From NCBI GenBank assembly GCA_000004695.1, contig CM000154.2:3104001-3168000 (forward strand): a stretch of DNA of 64,000 bases, written 5' to 3'. Shown here piece by piece: positions 9,136 through 61,540 of the stretch. Every line of letters begins with the position of its first letter. Position 1 is the first letter of the stretch. A model generated the notes under the pieces. It was not told where the DNA came from, did no database searches, and saw nothing but the letters and a program-made list of their open reading frames with translations. The translations under genes and the position numbers were made by a program. Source of the DNA: Dictyostelium discoideum (Eukaryota).

Positions 9136-9208
9136 CGCCCAAAGGGGGGCTCGAACCCCCGACCACAAGGTTAAAAGCCTTGCGCTCTACCGACTGAGCT
9201 ATCTGGGC
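9136..9208 (-). tRNA. tRNA-Lys, anticodon UUU
   Basis: The minus-strand sequence is GCCCAGATAGCTCAGTCGGTAGAGCGCAAGGCTTTTAACCTTGTGGTCGGGGGTTCGAGCCCCCCTTTGGGCG, 73 nt. It has a 7-bp acceptor stem (GCCCAGA/TTTGGGC with one G-U pair). The A box is TAGCTCAGTCGG. The anticodon loop is CTTTTAA (UUU). The B box is GGTTCGAGCCC. The discriminator is G. The CCA is not encoded. Confidence 0.92.
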
Positions 9209-15277: not shown

Positions 15278-16271
15278 ATTTTAATTTTATTACACTACTT
15301 TTTTTTTTTTTTAAAACAACTTGGACAACCTTTATTTTAATTATTAAAAAAAATTGTATTACATTAATATTTACTTTTTTTTTTTGTTTTTTTTTTTATT
15401 TTTTTTTTTTTGATGATTTTAATTTATTGTAATGCAAATTGGGTGTGGGTTTTTTTTTACAAAAAAAAAAAAATCAAGATATTAATTAAATTCTTTGAAA
15501 AAAAAGAAAAAAAAAATAAAGACTGATTATTTATTTTTTTTTATTTTTTATTTTTTATTTTTTTTTTTTAAATGTTATTTATTTATAACTTACTTTTGGA
15601 GTAACTAGGTATATTTTATAATGCAATATTTAAATGCAATCTATAAAAAGTTGTTGTGTTCTAAAAAAAAAAAATTATTATAAAATAAAAAAAAAAAAAA
15701 AAAAAAAAATAAAAATCCACTTTTTTTAAAAAAAAAAAAAAAAAATAAAAAAAAAAAGGTTGGAAAATCTAGACGTTGCGAAAATTGATATAAAATTGGA
15801 TTTTGGTATCTTTTATTTTTCATTTTATTTTACTTTCAATTAATATTTAATAACTAAATTATTATTATTATTTCATTTTTTCAATTAAAAATTAATTATT
15901 TATAAATTAATTCGATTTATTTTATTTTATTTTATTTTATTTTATTTTATTTTATTTTACTTTATAATTAAAAAAAAAAAAAAAAAAAATTAAAAATAAA
16001 AATAACAAAAAAATAATAAAAAAATAAAAAAAAATAAAAAAGGATGGAATATTTATAGTTAAAAGAAAAAAAAAAAAAAAAAAAAAAAAAAGAAATTTTA
16101 TCTTTTTTTTAATCAATTTTAGACTTAAATTTCAAAAAAAGAAAATGGGAAAAAAAAAAAAAATTAATTAATTAAAATTAAAATTGGTTCGGTTTAAAAA
16201 TTAATAATTTTTTTTTTAATTTTAAATTTTTTTTTTTTTTTTTTTTTTTTTCAAATTTTTTTTTATCACTC

Positions 16272-47657: not shown

Positions 47658-49325
47658 ATGATATCAATTGGCAATCAAAATAATAATAATAATAATAACT
47701 TTAATAATAAAGAAGCAATAAATGAAGAAACACTTTATAATTCATTATGTTTTTTAACATTTGAATTATTATTAGATTCATTAATATCAATCGGATATGA
47801 AAATGATATTGATACAATTGGCAATTCAAAAACATCAGTATTGAATAGACTAGTTAACGATGCAAGAGAATTAGGTATTGAAGAATTTATTCAACGTTTA
47901 AATTTTGATACGATTACAGAAACATGTTCATTGTTATCATTATCTGGTGTTAATGGTGATACCGATGATGAAATTATAACCAATTCACGTAAACAATTAG
48001 AAGAAAGAATGAAAAAGGATTCATTAGATCAATTCTTTTTTTCATTAACTCCACATATACTTTATAAATTTTGTGACTGTTTAAAAATTATATTACCAAA
48101 ACCAACAACAACAACATCAACACCAACATCAACAAATGAAACTATTGAAAAAAACACTAATGGTAATAATGAACAATCATCATCATCATCATCATCAAGT
48201 AGTAGTAGTAGTAGTGAAGAAACAGTTACAAAAACAATATCAAATTCAATACCATCAATTAAAGTTGGAGCAGATGGTACAACAGTATTATCGACATTAA
48301 CAACCAAATCATCTTATAAAAAGTTTAAAAAGGATAGAGGAATTCAATATGGTGATAGTATAGTTGAAGGATTATTCTATGAGAATATCATTAGGTTAAT
48401 AAAAGAGGAGATATTAGTTTCAGGTACTGAAAATTTATTCTCTTTTCTAAGTAAAGCCAAATTATTCTCAATTTGTGATTGTTTGAGAATCACTTTAAAA
48501 CCAACTGATAAAATGTCTGATATCATCACAAAAATCATTTCAAAATTATTTAATATCGATCATAATCCATCACAATTATTACAAAATCAAACAACAATTA
48601 GTACAACTAAATCTTCACAACAACAACAATCATCATCATCATCATCATCATCATCACAATCATCATCACAATCATCACAATCATCACAATCATCATCATC
48701 ATCACAACTACAACAAACACAACAGCAATCATTTAGTACACCAATTAGAAGTAAAAGTAATCTTCAATATCCAAAAACACCATTATCTCCTGATGATGTT
48801 GATACTTCACATGTTGTTGAAAAAGTTTTAGAAAGTGAAAATATTATAATTAGAGATGAAGAAAAAGAAAAAGAGAAAATTGAAAATGAAAAGATTAAAG
48901 AAACTGAAAAAATTGAAAAAGAAGAAATATTAAATGATAATAATAAATCAAATAAAAGAAAATATGATGATGTTGATGAGTTTAATGTTCAAGTTATTGT
49001 TAATGAAACTGATGATTCAGAGATTGATTCACCAGCAAAAAGACCATCAATAATTGATATTAAAATGGGTATTAAAAAACAAGATTTAGAATTTTATCTT
49101 GTTAAAGATTTAAGAAGTTGGTGTCAAAACAAAGGTTTAAAATATAATGATAAAAAATCAATTTTAATTAATAGAATTTTAAAATATTTAGAAAATGATC
49201 AAGCAACATCTGCATCTGAAAACGATGATTCAATCATTGATTCAACACCAACTAAAAGATCAAAAAGATTAAAAAAACAAAATTCAACAATTTCAACAAC
49301 AACCACCTCAACAACTACTAATTAA
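47658..49325 (+). CDS. SAP-domain protein of 555 aa with two copies of a novel 'FxxxCDCL(K/R)IxLKP' module and S/Q-rich linkers
   Basis: The C-terminal 'LEFYLVKDLRSWCQNKGLKYNDKKSILINRILKYL' fits the SAP motif (LxxLxVxELRxxLxxRGLxxxGxKxxLIxRL). The modules 'DQFFFSLTPHILYKFCDCLKIILPKP' and 'NLFSFLSKAKLFSICDCLRITLKPT' are repeated. Confidence 0.65.
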   Translation: MISIGNQNNNNNNNFNNKEAINEETLYNSLCFLTFELLLDSLISIGYENDIDTIGNSKTSVLNRLVNDARELGIEEFIQRLNFDTITETCSLLSLSGVNGDTDDEIITNSRKQLEERMKKDSLDQFFFSLTPHILYKFCDCLKIILPKPTTTTSTPTSTNETIEKNTNGNNEQSSSSSSSSSSSSSEETVTKTISNSIPSIKVGADGTTVLSTLTTKSSYKKFKKDRGIQYGDSIVEGLFYENIIRLIKEEILVSGTENLFSFLSKAKLFSICDCLRITLKPTDKMSDIITKIISKLFNIDHNPSQLLQNQTTISTTKSSQQQQSSSSSSSSSQSSSQSSQSSQSSSSSQLQQTQQQSFSTPIRSKSNLQYPKTPLSPDDVDTSHVVEKVLESENIIIRDEEKEKEKIENEKIKETEKIEKEEILNDNNKSNKRKYDDVDEFNVQVIVNETDDSEIDSPAKRPSIIDIKMGIKKQDLEFYLVKDLRSWCQNKGLKYNDKKSILINRILKYLENDQATSASENDDSIIDSTPTKRSKRLKKQNSTISTTTTSTTTN

Positions 49326-49406
49326 ATAATTAATTAATTAAATAAATAAATAAAAATAAAAATAAAAATAAAAAGTAATTTAAAAATTATTAATTAAAAT
49401 TATATT

Positions 49407-50347
49407 TTATTGTGCTTTTTCAATACCATAACCTATCCAAAATGCAACTAAAGTTGTAACAGCACCATTGATTAACATTTGAATACCAGATATGAACCAA
49501 TTTTTATTTGAGACGTAACCTTTGAAACAACCTAATAAAAAGAGAACAAAGACGAATAATGCAATTGAGATGATAAAGATTGAATCGAATTCGCCTTTAC
49601 TATTATAATGACCACTACAAAGGTATGCTAAAAGTGGTATACCACCACAAACTAAAAATGATGCAAATGTAACTAATGCACTCTTGATTGCGCCATAATC
49701 TGTACCACCACCACCTTCCTCATCATCGTCATCATCAACGGTAGCACCATGTTCTTCCATCATCATTATCGAAGTGACAGTTTTACGATATGGGAATAGT
49801 AATTCAACGATTCTAGATGCTTGTGAATTTGTAAACCCTTTCTTTTCATATATTTCAATTAATATTGATTTCTGTTCATCTGGATTACTATCTATATCTT
49901 GTTCAAGTTTTTTATATTCTAATTTTAGTTGATCCTCTTCCGCTATTTCACTAACATAATCACCAACTGCCATACCTATTGCGTCACCTAATAAATTGGC
50001 AAATGCTATAATTAATATTACACCTCTTGTTAATCCTGCTCCTGTTGCTGCTGCTACAATTGCAAATGTTGTCATAATACCATCTAATCCTCCAAACACA
50101 ATTGATTTAATAAATTCTCCTGATTCTCTAAATTTTTTAATAAAAAAAAAAAATAAAAAATAAAAAATAAAAAATTAAAATTATTTAAATTATTTTTATT
50201 TATTATTTATTTATTTATTTACTCTTTGTGTGGTTCTTTTCTATCTTCTTCATCTATTAAAGGTTTTCCATCATGTGCATCAATTGATTTTCTTATATCA
50301 TTTTCTTCATAAGCACTACGTGCTCCTTTTAAATTTCTACTTGCCAT
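49407..50347 (-). CDS. Second VIT1/CCC1-family iron-transporter-like protein. Two exons, about 281 aa.
   Basis: Exon 1 is 50347-50223 (MASRNLKGARSAYEENDIRKSIDAHDGKPLIDEEDRKEPHKE, donor GTAAAT, phase 2). Exon 2 is 50127-49407 after acceptor tttag. VIT signatures include 'VFGGLDGIMTTFAIVAAATGA', 'GMAVGDYVSEIAEED', 'IEIYEKKGF' and C-terminal TMs. It is a paralog of the 39050 gene. Confidence 0.8.
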
Positions 50348-50989
50348 TTATTGATATTTGTTACTACACTTATAGGAGATTTTTTTTAAAAAAAAAAAAA
50401 AACAAATAAATAAATAAAATAAATAAAAAAAATAAAAAATGTAGTGTGTAGGGAATGATCAAAAATCAAAAACGTTTTATTTTTTATAAAAATCAAAAAA
50501 ATCTTTTTAATTTTTATTTTTTTAATTTTAATTTTTTTTTTTTTTTTTTTTTTATGGAAATAGGGTAAAAAAAAAAATACAACCTTTTTTTATTATTAAA
50601 TAAATTTCCATTTCTTGTTTATTGTAATTTAATTGAAAACAAGAAAAATGTAAATTTTTTTTTTTTTTTTTTTTTTTTGTTTAATAGTTATTAATGAAAA
50701 AAATTTTTTTTTGTGATAGTGTCAAAACCAAAAATGTTAATATAATAAATTATAAAATTTTTTATTTTTTTTTTATTTAATTGTTATTAATGATAAAATT
50801 TTTTTCTTTTTTTATTTAATAGTTATTTTTTTGTTTCTTTTTTAAAAATTAGATATTCCCAAATTTGGGAATTTAAAATTAGAAATATGAAAAAATATGA
50901 AAAAAAATAAAAAAATGAAAAAAAAAAAATAAAAATTAGGTTGGCCTTCTCCCATAAATAATCTAATTTCAAAATAAAAAATCAATAAA

Positions 50990-51260
50990 AATTATTTTTT
51001 GAAAATAATTGTTTGAGGGAATTAAAAGGTGCATGGTGTTCGGTTACTTCGATTACAATATAATTTAAACAAAATGGATTTGTCTGAATATGTTACATTA
51101 ATTTAATGGGTAGAGGGTAGTAATCCTCAGCCTGTAGAATCAATTGAAACCTTCATTTGTGTATAAAATGGAATATTAGTTTAGTCTGGATCGGTTGACC
51201 CATAGGAAATTACTCTGGACTGAGTCTCAAAAACCAAACACCGACACTGCAATCACTCAA
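50990..51260. ncRNA. Candidate structured non-coding RNA or conserved non-coding element: a GC-rich island with no ORF. Strand and identity are unknown.
   Basis: About 270 bp at roughly 45% GC inside ~15% GC flanks, e.g. 'GGTGCATGGTGTTCGGTTACTTCG' and 'GGGTAGAGGGTAGTAATCCTCAGCCTGTAG'. Local hairpins are present (GAGG-GTAGTAAT-CCTC). No reading frame is longer than ~30 codons. The GUAAUC/CCUGUAG strings recall SRP-RNA Alu-domain motifs, but this is unverified. Confidence 0.3.
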
Positions 51261-51550
51261 TAATTCCTTTTTAATTAAAATTTTATTTTTAGAATCTAAT
51301 TATTTATTTTGTAAAATTTGTGATTGTGATTAACCTTTTTTATATGTGAAATAAAAAAAATAAAAAAAAAAAATAAAGTGACAATATCCAATACTAACCT
51401 TAGTTTATTGATACCACCAATTTAGAACTACAAAAATACCAGAAATAGATAATCAATTAAGAACTACTAAAAATAAAAATACCCTGTGTAATCTATATTA
51501 AAAAAAAAAAATGATAATAATAATTAATAATAATTATTGTATAATTTAAT

Positions 51551-51694
51551 CATATCTCTTTTCCATTATTTCCTTTAATAATAATAATATCGATAATTCA
51601 AATAAATTAAATGAATATGATAATCAAATCATTGATTTCAATAATCAAATAATTGATGATATTATTATCAAGGAAATAATGGAAAAGAGATATG
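51551..51694. repeat. A 25-bp perfect inverted repeat (CATATCTCTTTTCCATTATTTCCTT / AAGGAAATAATGGAAAAGAGATATG) enclosing a 94-bp inverted duplicate of a coding segment of the adjacent B-box/FNIP gene
   Basis: Arms at 51551-51575 and 51670-51694 are exact reverse complements. The enclosed 51576-51669 is about 95% identical to the reverse complement of 53309-53396 (codons ...NNNNIDNSNKLNEYDNQIIHFNNQIIDDI... of the 54082 gene), with 3 mismatches in ~88 bp. The copy has no start codon and is not in a usable frame. Confidence 0.8.
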
Positions 51695-52041
51695 ATAAAC
51701 TTGTTGAAAATATATAATTCGCAAAAAAATCAGGGCTTATTTTTATTTTATTTTATTTTTATTTTTTTTTTTTTCAAAAGAAACAATTTGATTTGGTATA
51801 ATTTAATTTAATTTTTTTTTGACAAGAAACGATTTTTGATTTGATTTGATTTTTTTTGTAGTTTAAAACTTTTGGAAACATTTACAGTTCTAGAAATTGT
51901 TTATTCAACATTAAAAATAAAGCACTCTGCAAATTCCTTATTAAATTATTTTTACATTTTTTGATACTTAAGGTTCAATTTGATGTTTAAAACTTTTGGA
52001 AACTTTTACTTCCTTTACAGTATTAGGAATTGAACCAATCA

Positions 52042-54082
52042 TTATTCTTGTTTAATATCACATAAATCCAACCATTTAACACTATCTGGTAATATACGTG
52101 GTGTTAATTTTTGATTGAATCCATCTTCTAAACATACATTCGTTACAGTATTAGGAATTGAACCAATCAATAATTCTTGTTTAATATCACCTAAATACAA
52201 CCATTCAACACTATCTGGTAATATACGTGGTGTTAATTTTTGATTAAATCCATCTTTTAAAGATACATGAGTTACAGTATTAGGAATTGAACCAATTATT
52301 AATTCTTGTTTAATATCACCTAAATTCAACCATTTAACACCATCTGGTAATATACCTGGTGTTAATTTTTGATTGAATCCATCCAATAGAGAGACACTCG
52401 TTACAGTATTAGGAATTGAACCATTTATTAATTCTTGTTTAATATCACCTAAATACAACCATTCAATACCATCTGGTAATATAATTGGTGTTAATTTTTG
52501 ATTGAATCCATCCAATAAAATGACACGAGTTACAGTATTAGGAATTGAACCAATTATTAATTCTTGTTTAATATCACCTAAATACAACCATTCAACACTA
52601 TCTGGTAATATACCTGGTGTTAATTTTTGATTGAATCCATCTTTTAGAAAGACACTCGTTACAGTATCAGGAATTGAACCAATTATTAATTCTTGTTTAA
52701 TATCACATAAATACAACGATTTAACACTATCTGGTAATATACCTGGTGTTAATTTTTGATTGAATCCATCCAATAAAGAGACACGAGTTACAGTATTAGG
52801 AATTGAACCATTTATTAATTCTTGTTTAATATCACCTAAATACAAGGATTTAACACTATCTGGTAATATACGTGGTGTTAAGTTTTGATTGAATCCATCC
52901 AATAAAGATACATTCTTTACAGTATTAGGAATTGAACCAATTATTAATTCTTGTTTAATATCACCCAAATACAAGCACTTAACACGATCTGGTAATATAC
53001 CAAGTGTTAATTTTTGATTGAATCCGTCCAATAGCATTACATGTGATGGTAATTTATTTTTTAATTCTGATAAAATATTACAATTGTCTTTGAATGCTAT
53101 ACCTTCCTCAAATTTAAAAAGACCACCTTCTATATAAATATAAAACTTTAAATTATTCCCTATATTTGGTAATTAGTAATGTGAAAATCATTTATTAAAA
53201 AAAAAAAACATTTTAAAGCTTACATTTAAAAAATTTATTATTATTTTCATCGATTTCAATTTTAAATCTACAATTATCTAAGGTATAAATTGATTTTAAA
53301 TTATTTTTAATATCATCAATTATCTGATTATTGAAATGAATGATTTGATTATCGTATTCATTTAATTTATTTGAATTATCGATATTATTATTATTATTTA
53401 ATACTATTAATGATTGTTGATATTGTTTAATAATTTTAATAGTATCTCTATCGATAATAAAATCATCTCCATTATCATAAATTTGTTGATCATTAAATTT
53501 TATAATTTCATTTAATTTTTCAATGGTTGTAATATTATCATTTTCATTTTCATTTTCATTTTCATTTTCATTTTCATTTTCATTTTCATTTTTATAATTA
53601 ATTATAGTTGAAAGTATTTGATTATCATTATTGATTGAAGAATTTATAATTGTATTTATTAATGTATTATTTTCAAAGGTTTTTTCTAATTGTTTTTGAA
53701 TATCTAATTCTATGATTGAAATGATATCATGAATTTTTTTAATTTCTTTTTTTAATGAATTATTATTAATATCAAATTGTGATTGAATTTTATTATATTT
53801 ATCATTTGATTGTTTTAATATTTTTTCATTGGTTTCTATTCTGTCAATTACTTTTTGATGTATATCATCTTTAAAATTATTCATTAATGAAAGAATATTT
53901 GAAGTTGATTCTAATGGATCAGTTTTGTGACCATGATGTTCACCTTTACTTGATGTACATTGAATACAACATGGTATTAATTTACAATCTAAACAAAAGA
54001 ATATTATATCTTTGTTTGGGTGAAGTGTACACTTTTTATTATTATCAATATTATTATTTATTATATTTTGATTGGATATCAT
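52042..54082 (-). CDS. B-box zinc-finger, coiled-coil and FNIP-repeat protein. Two exons, about 658 aa.
   Basis: Exon 1 is 54082-53224 with a GTAAGC donor in phase 1 and a 62-nt intron. Exon 2 is 53159-52042 after acceptor atatag. The B-box is 'CTLHPNKDIIFFCLDCKLIPCCIQCTSSKGEHHGH'. The exon also carries a poly-(NE) tract. Exon 2 contains ~15 tandem 22-aa FNIP units 'LDGFNQKLTPGILPDSVKSLYLGDIKQELIIGSIPNTVT...'. Confidence 0.75.
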
Positions 54083-54261
54083 TGTGTTTGGAAAATTAAT
54101 ATGTAAAAAAAAAAAAAAAAAAAATTATTTTTAAAATTTTGTGCCTAGAAATTTTTTATAGGGGTAAAAAACAAAATCTTGAAATAAAAAAATAAAAAAT
54201 AAAATAAAATCACTTAAAAAATAAATTTTATGAAAAAATGAAAAGTTAGTTTAAATATTTT

Positions 54262-54326
<65 letters not shown>

Positions 54327-54407
54327 TTATCTGTTATCTGTTAGTAACAAAAGAGTAAGTAGAAGAGTCAATAATTAAAATAAAAAATTAAAAAAAAAAA
54401 ATTATTT

Positions 54408-54438
<31 letters not shown>

Positions 54439-54606
54439 GTAATTTATTTTTTAATTCTGTATATCCACATATTTTTTTTTTTTTTCAATTTTTTTGTTCA
54501 TCGCAAACCAAAAAATAATGCACCAATATCCAAAATCTTTTAATTGAATCTAAAAATATTGAAAAATCCATATTAAAGATAAATAAAATTAAATATTGTT
54601 TGAAAT

Positions 54607-54637
<31 letters not shown>

Positions 54638-54972
54638 TTTTAATTGGAAGAAATTGAGAAATTTAATTTAATTTTATAAATCGATTTAGTTTGTTTTTTT
54701 TTTAATAATCAAAAAAAAAAAACATGAAAAAAATAAAAATAGTTAAAAAAAAAAACAGAAATTCCAAAATTAATTCTTGGAATTCTTGTTTTTTTAAAAA
54801 TTTAAATTTTTTCAAACTTTTAACCGCAATTTTTTTTTTTTTTTTCGTATCAATATTTTTTTTAATTTTTATTTTCATTTTTATTTTTTTTTATTTTTTC
54901 AATTCAAATAAAGTTTTATTTGAAGGATAATAAAACTATTTGATTGTTTTTTATTTATTTTCAAATATATTT

Positions 54973-55006
<34 letters not shown>

Positions 55007-60413: not shown

Positions 60414-60846
60414 TTTTTATATTATATATATTGCAATAAAAAAAAAAAAAAAAAAAAAATTAAAAATTAAAAAAAAAAAAAATTAAAAATTAAAAAAAAA
60501 AAAAAAAAAAAAAATGAATATTTTTTTTTTTTTATTTTTTTAATTTTTTATAGATTTTTATTTGAAATAAATATGTTCTTTTTTTTCTTTTTCCAAAAAA
60601 TAAATTTTTTGTGATTAAAAAAAATAAAATAAAATAAAATAAAATGATAAAATGGTTAAAAAAAAAAAAAAAAGAATAAAATAAAATGATAAAATGATTA
60701 AAAAAAAAAAAATAAAAAATAAAAAATAAAAAAAAAAAGGAAGTTTGGATTTAAGGTTTTGAAATATTTGTTTTTTTATTTTTTTTTTATTTTTTATATG
60801 TTTTTTTATTGTTTGCGGTAATTGTTTTCGATATTGTTTTTTTTTT

Positions 60847-61359
60847 CTTTAATTATTAAAATGCGGAATAGGAAGACCTATTCAAAAAAATAGTGAAAGC
60901 TGCCTTTATGACTTCGGTTCACGGAAGTATTTTAGTAAAAGGCGAAAATCTTTTTCGTTATTGAACCGAAGTCGGAAGCGATAAAAAAAAGAAAATATGA
61001 TCAAATAATTTTTTTAATACTAATAATTCATTATATTAAATTATGGGTTTCAAATTTAAAAAAAAAAAAATTGATGTTCAATTTTTTTTTTTGAAATTTT
61101 TTTTTATTTTTATTTTTATTTATTTTTTTTTCAATTTTCAAAAAAAAAAAATTAAAATAACCCATAATTAAAATTTTATGAGTTATTAGTATTAAAAAAA
61201 TTTATTTTTCATTATAAAATTTTATCGCTTCCGACTTCGGTTCAATAACGAAAAAGATTTTCGCCTTTTACTAAAATACTTCCGTGAACCGAAGTCATAA
61301 AGGCAGCTTTCATTATTTTTTTGAATAGGTCTTCCTATTCCGCATTTTAATAATTAAAG
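60847..61359. mobile_element. A ~510-bp element bounded by ~138-bp near-perfect terminal inverted repeats. It resembles a MITE or hairpin-type non-autonomous DNA element, and is possibly thug/DDT-S-like.
   Basis: The left arm at 60847-60986 (CTTTAATTATTAAAATGCGGAATAGGAAGACCTATTC...GAACCGAAGTCGGAAGCGATAAAA) is the reverse complement of the right arm at 61220-61359, with 1 mismatch in 138 bp. The arms are about 40% GC and contain CG dinucleotides, in a region that is otherwise >85% AT. The ~230-bp spacer is AT-rich and has a weaker internal palindrome (ATTATGGGTTT / AAACCCATAAT). There is no ORF. It lies between the ap2s1 5' flank and the hydrolase 3' end. Confidence 0.6.
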
Positions 61360-61540
61360 AAAAAAAAACAAATTAAAAATATATTATTATTTGATATATT
61401 TAAAAATATATATTATACTTCCTATTTAAAAATAAATAAAAATATCATTTTAGAAAATAAAAAACTTATTACTGTGCTCTATTTTATTTTACCCAAATTA
61501 TATATTTTTTATAATTTTGTTTTTATTATTTTTTATTTAT

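Follow-up and report, generated by a model that had tools for sequence, protein, structure and literature searches.

A perfect hairpin beside a B-box/FNIP gene of Dictyostelium discoideum as a probable repair scar of a lineage-specific gene insertion

Introduction

On the 3' side of a gene for a B-box/FNIP-repeat protein of Dictyostelium discoideum lies a hairpin with two perfectly complementary arms, and between them an inverted copy of a coding piece of that same gene. The question raised by this locus is whether the hairpin is a regulator of the adjoining gene, a mobile element, or a by-product of the way in which this part of the chromosome came about. We analysed the 64-kb window containing it (i.e. 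the whole stretch of 64,000 nucleotides, AT-rich with a GC content of ~22% and with intron-split genes), together with orthologous loci of other isolates and species and with the paralogs of the gene. The hairpin is probably a DNA-repair by-product of the insertion of a FNIP paralog in the AX4-type lineage of D. discoideum, and as such it adds one more case to a familiar class of structural mutations.

Structure of the hairpin

The hairpin consists of the following elements, with positions given on the window.

51549 to 51575, no strand: left arm of the perfect inverted repeat, defined by pairing (26 bp from 51550, 27 bp with 51549)
51576 to 51664, + strand: 89-nt copy of B-box/FNIP exon 1, gene-sense on the + strand and inverted relative to the gene
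51581 to 51591, no strand: inner inverted microhomology ATAATAATATC, a possible site of fold-back priming, perfectly complementary to 51658-51668 with 66 nt in between
51665 to 51669, no strand: five nucleotides, TTATC, that separate the copied piece from the right arm and are absent from the source gene
51670 to 51696, no strand: right arm of the perfect inverted repeat, defined by pairing with the left arm

The arm, TCATATCTCTTTTCCATTATTTCCTT, is present in exactly two copies in the 64-kb window, at 51550-51575 (+) and 51670-51695 (-), with 0 mismatches and with 0 occurrences expected by chance. The preliminary description had reported a perfect inverted repeat of 25 bp; the pairing is perfect as stated, but the arms measure 26 bp, and the pair 51549/51696 extends the perfect stem to 27 bp. 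With 26-bp arms, the hairpin unit is 146 bp in size and the spacer between the arms is 94 nt. This stem (51549-51696) is the one complex perfect inverted repeat of at least 20 bp with a spacer of at most 400 nt in the window, and none of this kind was found in 30 simulated windows of matched composition. The corresponding RNA is predicted to fold with -59 kcal/mol for the minus strand and -55 kcal/mol for the plus strand (z of about -10 relative to shuffled sequences), the inner 11-bp microhomology forming an extended stem in the predicted folds.

The segment of the neighbouring gene that resembles the loop is 53308-53396, within exon 1, to which positions 51576-51664 are 97% complementary over 89 nt (86/89 identical). 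The loop had been described as an inverted copy of ~95% identity spanning 51576-51669; it is an inverted copy, but its true limits are 51576-51664, and the last five nucleotides, TTATC, do not belong to it. The copy sits within a 55-codon open frame lacking a start codon. A coding exon or pseudogene on the + strand was considered for this frame and rejected, as it has no ATG and a phmmer search against 1.84 billion representative proteins returned only FNIP paralogs, through the copied piece, and an unrelated repetitive protein.

A chimeric or fold-back read in the reference could give rise to a structure of this appearance, and palindromic artefacts do occur with some sequencing chemistries. 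The window is nevertheless 99.8% identical to an independent chromosome-level assembly (GCA_054883475.1, CM142511.1, 5.29-Mb record, ~3.23-3.25 Mb; L004), with 100% identity over 50553-51900. The identical sequence in this second assembly indicates that the hairpin is not an assembly artefact, and the divergence of the copy from its source at 3 positions would be unexpected for one, so that we regard this explanation as extremely unlikely.

Orthologous loci and boundaries of the insertion

The DNA between the hairpin and the upstream region of the gene can be divided into five segments.

54083 to 54468, - strand: upstream (promoter) sequence of paralog type that came in together with the gene, defined by alignment to paralogs
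52042 to 54082, - strand: B-box/FNIP-repeat gene encoding 658 aa, with exon 1 at 54082..53224, an intron GTAAGC...TAG, and exon 2 at 53159..52042
51886 to 52041, - strand: former C-terminal coding sequence and 3' UTR, defined by alignment to paralogs
51861 to 51885, - strand: 25-nt direct templated copy (24/25) of 51985-52009, with a score of 22 against a shuffle maximum of 18.5, located in a gap in all paralogs
51697 to 51860, no strand: AT-rich junctional segment with short microsatellites (TTATTT, TAATT, TTTGA)

Orthologous loci were located through the neighbouring SAP-domain and VIT1 genes, the latter being DDB_G0289715 of strain AX4. The FNIP gene and the hairpin are absent from all six of the other loci, namely those of D. 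cf. discoideum (L005, L010), D. citrinum (L006), D. firmibasis (L007), and the D. discoideum isolates ACTFIW (L008) and ACTFIR (L009). In the first four of these, VIT1 is followed after 0.6-1.3 kb by a large RING-finger gene, with no FNIP gene between them. In ACTFIW and ACTFIR, too, the RING gene comes directly after VIT1. Homology of the ACTFIW locus to the window is unbroken from VIT1 to position 51550, the outermost base of the left arm, including a GC-richer island within the spacer, and resumes at ~54460-54469. This places the left junction at 51550/51551 and the right junction between ~54440 and 54468, beside a T-run. The dinucleotide AT at 51549-51550 represents both the outermost bases of the stem and the last bases of the ancestral flank in isolates without the insertion. 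Homology to paralogs covers the whole gene unit, from ~51880 to ~54436, and up to ~54436 the sequence upstream of the gene is almost the same as that of one paralog (L001b). Since homology with ACTFIW stops at 51550 and paralog-type sequence reaches ~54436, the region from 51551 to ~54440-54468 is, as judged from these alignments, an insertion of ~2.9 kb in the AX4 lineage which comprises a whole paralog gene unit, with the hairpin as its terminal piece.

The insertion takes the place of 510-600 bp of fast-evolving spacer. The empty sites of ACTFIW and ACTFIR align well with each other; the sequence that fills them has no counterpart in the outgroups, and the polarity of the event thus rests on presence or absence of the gene rather than on spacer sequence. 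Two other readings of the boundaries were examined and discarded. Apparent resumption of homology just right of the hairpin (AGGGCTTATTTTTA followed by a T-run) is of low complexity, with a score of 51 against a shuffle maximum of 52, and a junction at ~54160, suggested by an A-rich local alignment, is ruled out by the paralog-type upstream sequence that reaches ~54436.

The boundaries bear on the possibility that the hairpin is itself a small non-autonomous element of the foldback or MITE type, with 26-bp terminal inverted repeats and a captured gene fragment (a "Pack-MITE"), inserted at a TAA target. The perfect terminal repeats of 26-27 bp would fit this proposal. When arms of 26 bp are assumed, the hairpin is flanked by TAA on either side, which may be a 3-bp target duplication like those of PIF/Harbinger elements; a gene for a DDE_Tnp_4 transposase exists in a related genome (L003), and foldback repeats which yield small RNAs (thug-S) are known in D. 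discoideum. The hairpin would thereby share with Pack-MULE and Pack-MITE elements and with thug-S the terminal repeats around a captured gene fragment, the small size of the unit (146 bp) and the possible TAA/TAA flank. Unlike these, it has no clean empty site: excision of the 146 bp alone does not restore collinearity with ACTFIW or ACTFIR (z at most 0.7 relative to shuffled sequences). We estimate the chance of a TAA/TAA flank at ~4% in such AT-rich DNA, and one base of each TAA is a possible 27th pair of the stem. The preliminary description had pointed out that an arm found at many loci would indicate the terminus of a repeat family; no arm besides those of the hairpin was detected in the window or in ~259 kb of Dictyostelium loci when up to 5-6 mismatches were allowed, a sample that covers ~120 kb (0.35%) of the AX4-type genome and in which a low-copy family may have escaped notice, and exact matches in a metagenome collection numbered 0. 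The hairpin further differs from the elements named above in having no second copy in the sampled DNA, and its arm resembles nothing else in the window or in the compared loci. Taken together, a mobile element is unlikely.

Several additional features of the VIT1-RING region emerged from these comparisons. The ACTFIR locus has a small perfect palindrome of its own, AGACCCTATAGGGTCT, at ~8970-8990 of L009, orthologous to ~51575 of the window and ~25 nt right of the junction point at which AX4 carries the hairpin; ACTFIW has half of this palindrome (TATAGGGTCT). The spacer seems prone to palindrome formation. The GC-richer island mentioned above, at ~51020-51260 in the AT-rich spacer, is ~91% conserved in ACTFIW and ACTFIR and absent from the loci of the sister species. 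Neither a match in Rfam nor a convincing open reading frame was found for the island, and two sequences within it read as near-matches to the DUSE motif; the island may represent a regulatory element or a small RNA gene that has escaped annotation. In the VIT1 exon at 49407-50099, ACTFIW and ACTFIR, both labelled D. discoideum, differ from AX4 by 3.5-4%, a divergence not far below that of the loci labelled "D. cf. discoideum" (4.7-5.7%). This suggests that the one species name covers deep lineages or cryptic species.

The truncated 3' end of the B-box/FNIP gene

The model of the B-box/FNIP gene given above agrees with a gene of 658 aa annotated in the independent assembly. It is a member of a family with clusters at a distance of ~100 kb on its own chromosome (L001/L012, L011) and in related species, which are 88-94% identical to it. 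Relative to all nine paralogs examined, the gene has lost one nucleotide at ~52045 (CAAGAA-TAATG), and this deletion creates the present stop at 52042, with a C-terminal truncation of ~35 codons. The ancestral stop lies at ~51938 and is followed by an AATAAA at 51900-51905 that is conserved in the paralogs. The stretch 51886-52041 is now untranslated because of the deletion, and the inserted FNIP copy may be on the path to becoming a pseudogene.

Homology to the paralogs at the 3' end stops at ~51880. The adjoining 25-nt direct copy was found with strict alignment settings, gap-permissive local alignments being dominated by poly-A runs, and its template (51985-52009) lies in the former C-terminal tail of FNIP. 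The region 51850-52040, which had been interpreted as decayed FNIP units, is instead composed of old C-terminal coding sequence cut off by the frameshift, the old 3' UTR, and this local 25-nt duplicate. Between it and the hairpin, the segment 51697-51860 resembles neither paralog flanks nor the empty sites of other isolates to a significant degree. The hairpin does lie 3' of the stop codon as first described, but at 347-492 nt past the present stop (52042-52044) rather than at a distance of ~470 bp.

Donor and age of the copied piece

Four positions of the 89-nt piece are informative on its origin.

Position 43: T in the hairpin copy, C in the neighbouring gene, both states among other family members
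Position 59: G in the hairpin copy, C in the neighbouring gene, C in every other family member
Position 65: A in the hairpin copy, A in the neighbouring gene, C in all D. discoideum cluster paralogs
Position 73: A in the hairpin copy, G in the neighbouring gene, A in other family members

The piece is 94-98% identical to the cluster paralogs ~100 kb away, and matches one of them (L001b, L001:5675-5763) at 87/89 positions, i.e. with 2 mismatches. The neighbouring gene is thus not the sole possible donor: the match to it on which the earlier attribution was based is confirmed, whereas its status as only candidate is not. The most plausible donor, on the distribution of these variants, is the neighbouring gene or its direct progenitor, and changes have accrued after copying in both the copy (private G at position 59) and the gene (private G at position 73). 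The divergence between copy and gene, 3/89 or 3.4%, is of the same order as that between AX4 and the insertion-less isolates in coding sequence (3.5-4%). This correspondence is consistent with a hairpin as old as the insertion.

The direct donor locus of the inserted gene was not found, the nearest of the paralogs compared being 91-94% identical in exon 1, and the hairpin could therefore have pre-existed in the 3' flank of the donor and been carried along. According to this scenario it would have been copied in with the gene from downstream of the donor paralog, and a hairpin in the nascent strand would have stopped synthesis and so fixed the end of the insertion. Such a hairpin would remain a structural by-product, though one of greater age. 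The coincidence of the junction with the outer end of the stem would be accounted for in this way, the ~165 nt that separate the hairpin from the last paralog homology could be donor flank, and a divergence of 3/89 permits a copy older than the insertion. Nothing similar is present, however, in the 3' flanks of the nine paralogs examined, and the copy is linked to the lineage of the neighbouring gene by the A that both have at position 65. We consider prior existence in the donor a minor possibility.

A probable fold-back or template-switch repair scar

The 3' junction of the insertion contains three templated pieces, i.e. the 25-nt direct copy, the 89-nt inverted copy and the 26-27-nt inverted arms. 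Remodelling of this 3' flank, which had been suspected from the supposed decayed FNIP units in it, is evident in these pieces and the microhomologies that accompany them. The flanking inverted repeat had likewise been taken for the footprint of the duplication mechanism, such as a foldback or template switch, and this view is strengthened by the outer end of the left arm, which is the insertion boundary to the base. Of the 11 bp of inner microhomology, 7 (TAATATC/GATATTA) are already present in the source gene, at the two ends of the piece. The outer junction has a 2-nt (AT) overlap with the old flank.

The preferred reading, which we hold to be probable, is that the hairpin was formed by repair synthesis during the insertion. 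A complete B-box/FNIP paralog, with promoter, gene and 3' end, would have been copied into the spacer between VIT1 and the RING-finger gene. At the 3' end of the copied unit, repair synthesis would have changed template several times on short microhomologies and added three pieces: 25 nt copied directly from sequence close by, 89 nt of exon 1 taken in inverted orientation from the same unit 1.6 kb away, and a 26-27-nt reverse complement of sequence 94 nt off. This last piece would have been produced by folding back on the 11-bp ATAATAATATC/GATATTATTAT, a step that would yield the perfect arms, and the new end would have been joined to the old chromosomal flank by the 2-nt AT overlap. The order of these steps, the identity of the arm that is the copy, and the enzymes involved (Pol delta or MMBIR-like synthesis, or Pol theta-type synthesis and end joining) we infer; the position of the junction, the templated pieces with their donors, the microhomologies and the absence from six other orthologous loci are observed directly. 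With a simple fold-back at the inner microhomology, the right arm should be preceded by TTATTATTA or TATTA; the TTATC actually found there calls for one further small indel or substitution at the least.

Sequence related to the arm was found neither in the ancestral flank, nor in the empty-site sequence, nor in the paralog flanks, and the translated arm gave no protein match among 1.84 billion representatives. A candidate origin of the arm in the ancestral flank or in deleted empty-site sequence, with 13/26 matches by eye, was dismissed as not significant (z of about 1 relative to shuffled sequences).

Close parallels are available from yeast, in which single-stranded DNA folds on inverted microhomologies of ~10 bp with a 41-nt spacer, followed by short synthesis, unwinding of the new strand, and its capture, at a median microhomology of 2 bp, by the other end (PMC11724301). 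The resulting insertions are inverted, range from 2 to ~150 bp, include complex multi-donor cases, have features in common with MMBIR, and depend on Pol delta (PMC11724301). PolQ, Lig3 and classical NHEJ are present in D. discoideum (PMC8529158). As in synthesis-dependent mechanisms of this group, i.e. SD-MMEJ or Pol theta "snap-back", Pol delta fold-back (PMC11724301) and MMBIR/FoSTeS, the hairpin lies exactly at a rearrangement junction, and as in templated repair insertions in general, several pieces occur in a row, from nearby donors and in direct as well as inverted orientation. More specifically, priming on an inverted microhomology of ~10 bp, with a spacer of some tens of nucleotides, would extend the inverted repeat as in the yeast fold-back, the capture microhomology is 2 nt, and the pieces of 25, 26-27 and 89 nt fall within the range of 2-150 nt. 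The present case differs from the yeast system in being a natural, fixed event without an induced break, which ends an ectopic gene copy of 2.9 kb, in having one donor 1.6 kb away on newly copied DNA, and in a junction sequence that requires one extra small indel.

A hairpin of this origin is most likely without selected function. The spacer of 94 nt would make extrusion of a cruciform unlikely, and for this reason the hairpin may persist.

Possible RNA functions

Could the hairpin nevertheless act as RNA? The preliminary description had noted that, on the strand of the gene, the copy would be antisense to its own coding sequence, and the geometry is indeed correct, the copy being antisense to exon 1. 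A putative read-through transcript of the FNIP gene might then fold on its own coding region to give an 89-bp duplex, or a local hairpin might be diced, and the predicted siRNAs would down-regulate the FNIP gene and, in trans, its 94-98% identical paralogs. In addition to the orientation of the copy, the very stable fold predicted for both strands, the identity of 94-98% between the piece and the cluster paralogs, and the silencing machinery of D. discoideum (Dicers, Argonautes, RdRPs) would favour such a function; hairpin-triggered silencing in this species is reported to spread in an RdRP-dependent manner (PMC3661229). Against it, the hairpin is separated from the stop by seven canonical AATAAA/ATTAAA poly(A) signals, of which the first is conserved in the paralogs, the structure is lineage-specific and absent from the six other orthologous loci, and the adjoining gene is truncated by a frameshift. 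The paralog clusters have no equivalent arrangement, inverted coding fragments in them being low-complexity pairs only. A literature check with 12-mers of the arm, which covered the two main catalogues of D. discoideum miRNAs, did not find the arms in searchable main texts, in the searched supplements of PMC6161686 and PMC11014262 (the two catalogues) or in the miRNA table of PMC4894637 (Meier 2016), and no paper was found that links FNIP genes with small RNAs in Dictyostelium. We therefore regard an RNA function as quite unlikely.

Membership in a known RNA family was examined separately and dismissed, Rfam giving no match at E of 1 or below in 49000-55000. No T-rich motif of transcription start sites can be read from the sequence upstream of the hairpin on the + strand.

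It is conceivable that a scar of this kind was co-opted after it had formed. Occasional read-through, or transcription of the hairpin itself, would give the 89-bp duplex with exon 1 or the 27-bp stem, and putative siRNAs from these might damp the paralog family. They could act in trans on the whole family since the piece is 94-98% identical to the cluster ~100 kb away. We judge this very unlikely; if true, it would reveal a lineage-specific silencing locus of an amoebozoan at the time of its birth. Young MIRNA genes of plants are reportedly born by inverted duplication of the target gene, as Allen et al. are said to have described in 2004. The present locus resembles them in the inverted copy of a coding fragment near a family member, within a hairpin-forming locus. 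It differs in that both arms of a young plant MIRNA gene derive from the target, whereas here the gene fragment is single and lies in the loop, and the arms match nothing in the gene; in contrast to the plant genes, no published small RNAs from the hairpin are known. With the DrnB-dependent miRNA hairpins of D. discoideum (mir-1176, mir-1177 and others), it has in common an intergenic stem-loop with very favourable predicted folding energy, and it departs from them in its perfect stem of 26-27 bp, its 94-nt loop, its lack of conservation and its absence from the published lists searched.

Implications for genome evolution and annotation

The locus provides a natural, cleanly resolved case of how a dispersed gene duplicate was laid down in Dictyostelium, with a multi-piece templated junction as a record of the repair. 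Striking hairpins beside genes of expanding families can be mechanical scars rather than regulators, and scans of genomes for such structures call for corresponding caution. The locus is polymorphic between D. discoideum lineages, and may thus serve as a lineage marker. Unless small RNAs arise there, the hairpin poses no new biological question.

Other inverted repeats and RNA genes

An inverted repeat of 124 nt and 90% identity with a 25-nt spacer lies at 15899-16171 of the D. cf. discoideum locus L003, immediately upstream of the DDE_Tnp_4 (PIF/Harbinger-type) transposase gene, and is probably a transposon terminus or a foldback. Within the window, a 154-nt inverted repeat of 98% identity (60833-60986 and 61220-61373, with an AT-rich spacer of 233 nt) is a head-to-head (divergent) pair of U5 spliceosomal snRNA genes (RF00020), at 60866-60980 (-) and 61226-61340 (+), with 78-79 bits relative to a gathering score of 40. 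The sole tRNA gene of the window, for tRNA-Lys(UUU), is located at 9136-9208 (-).
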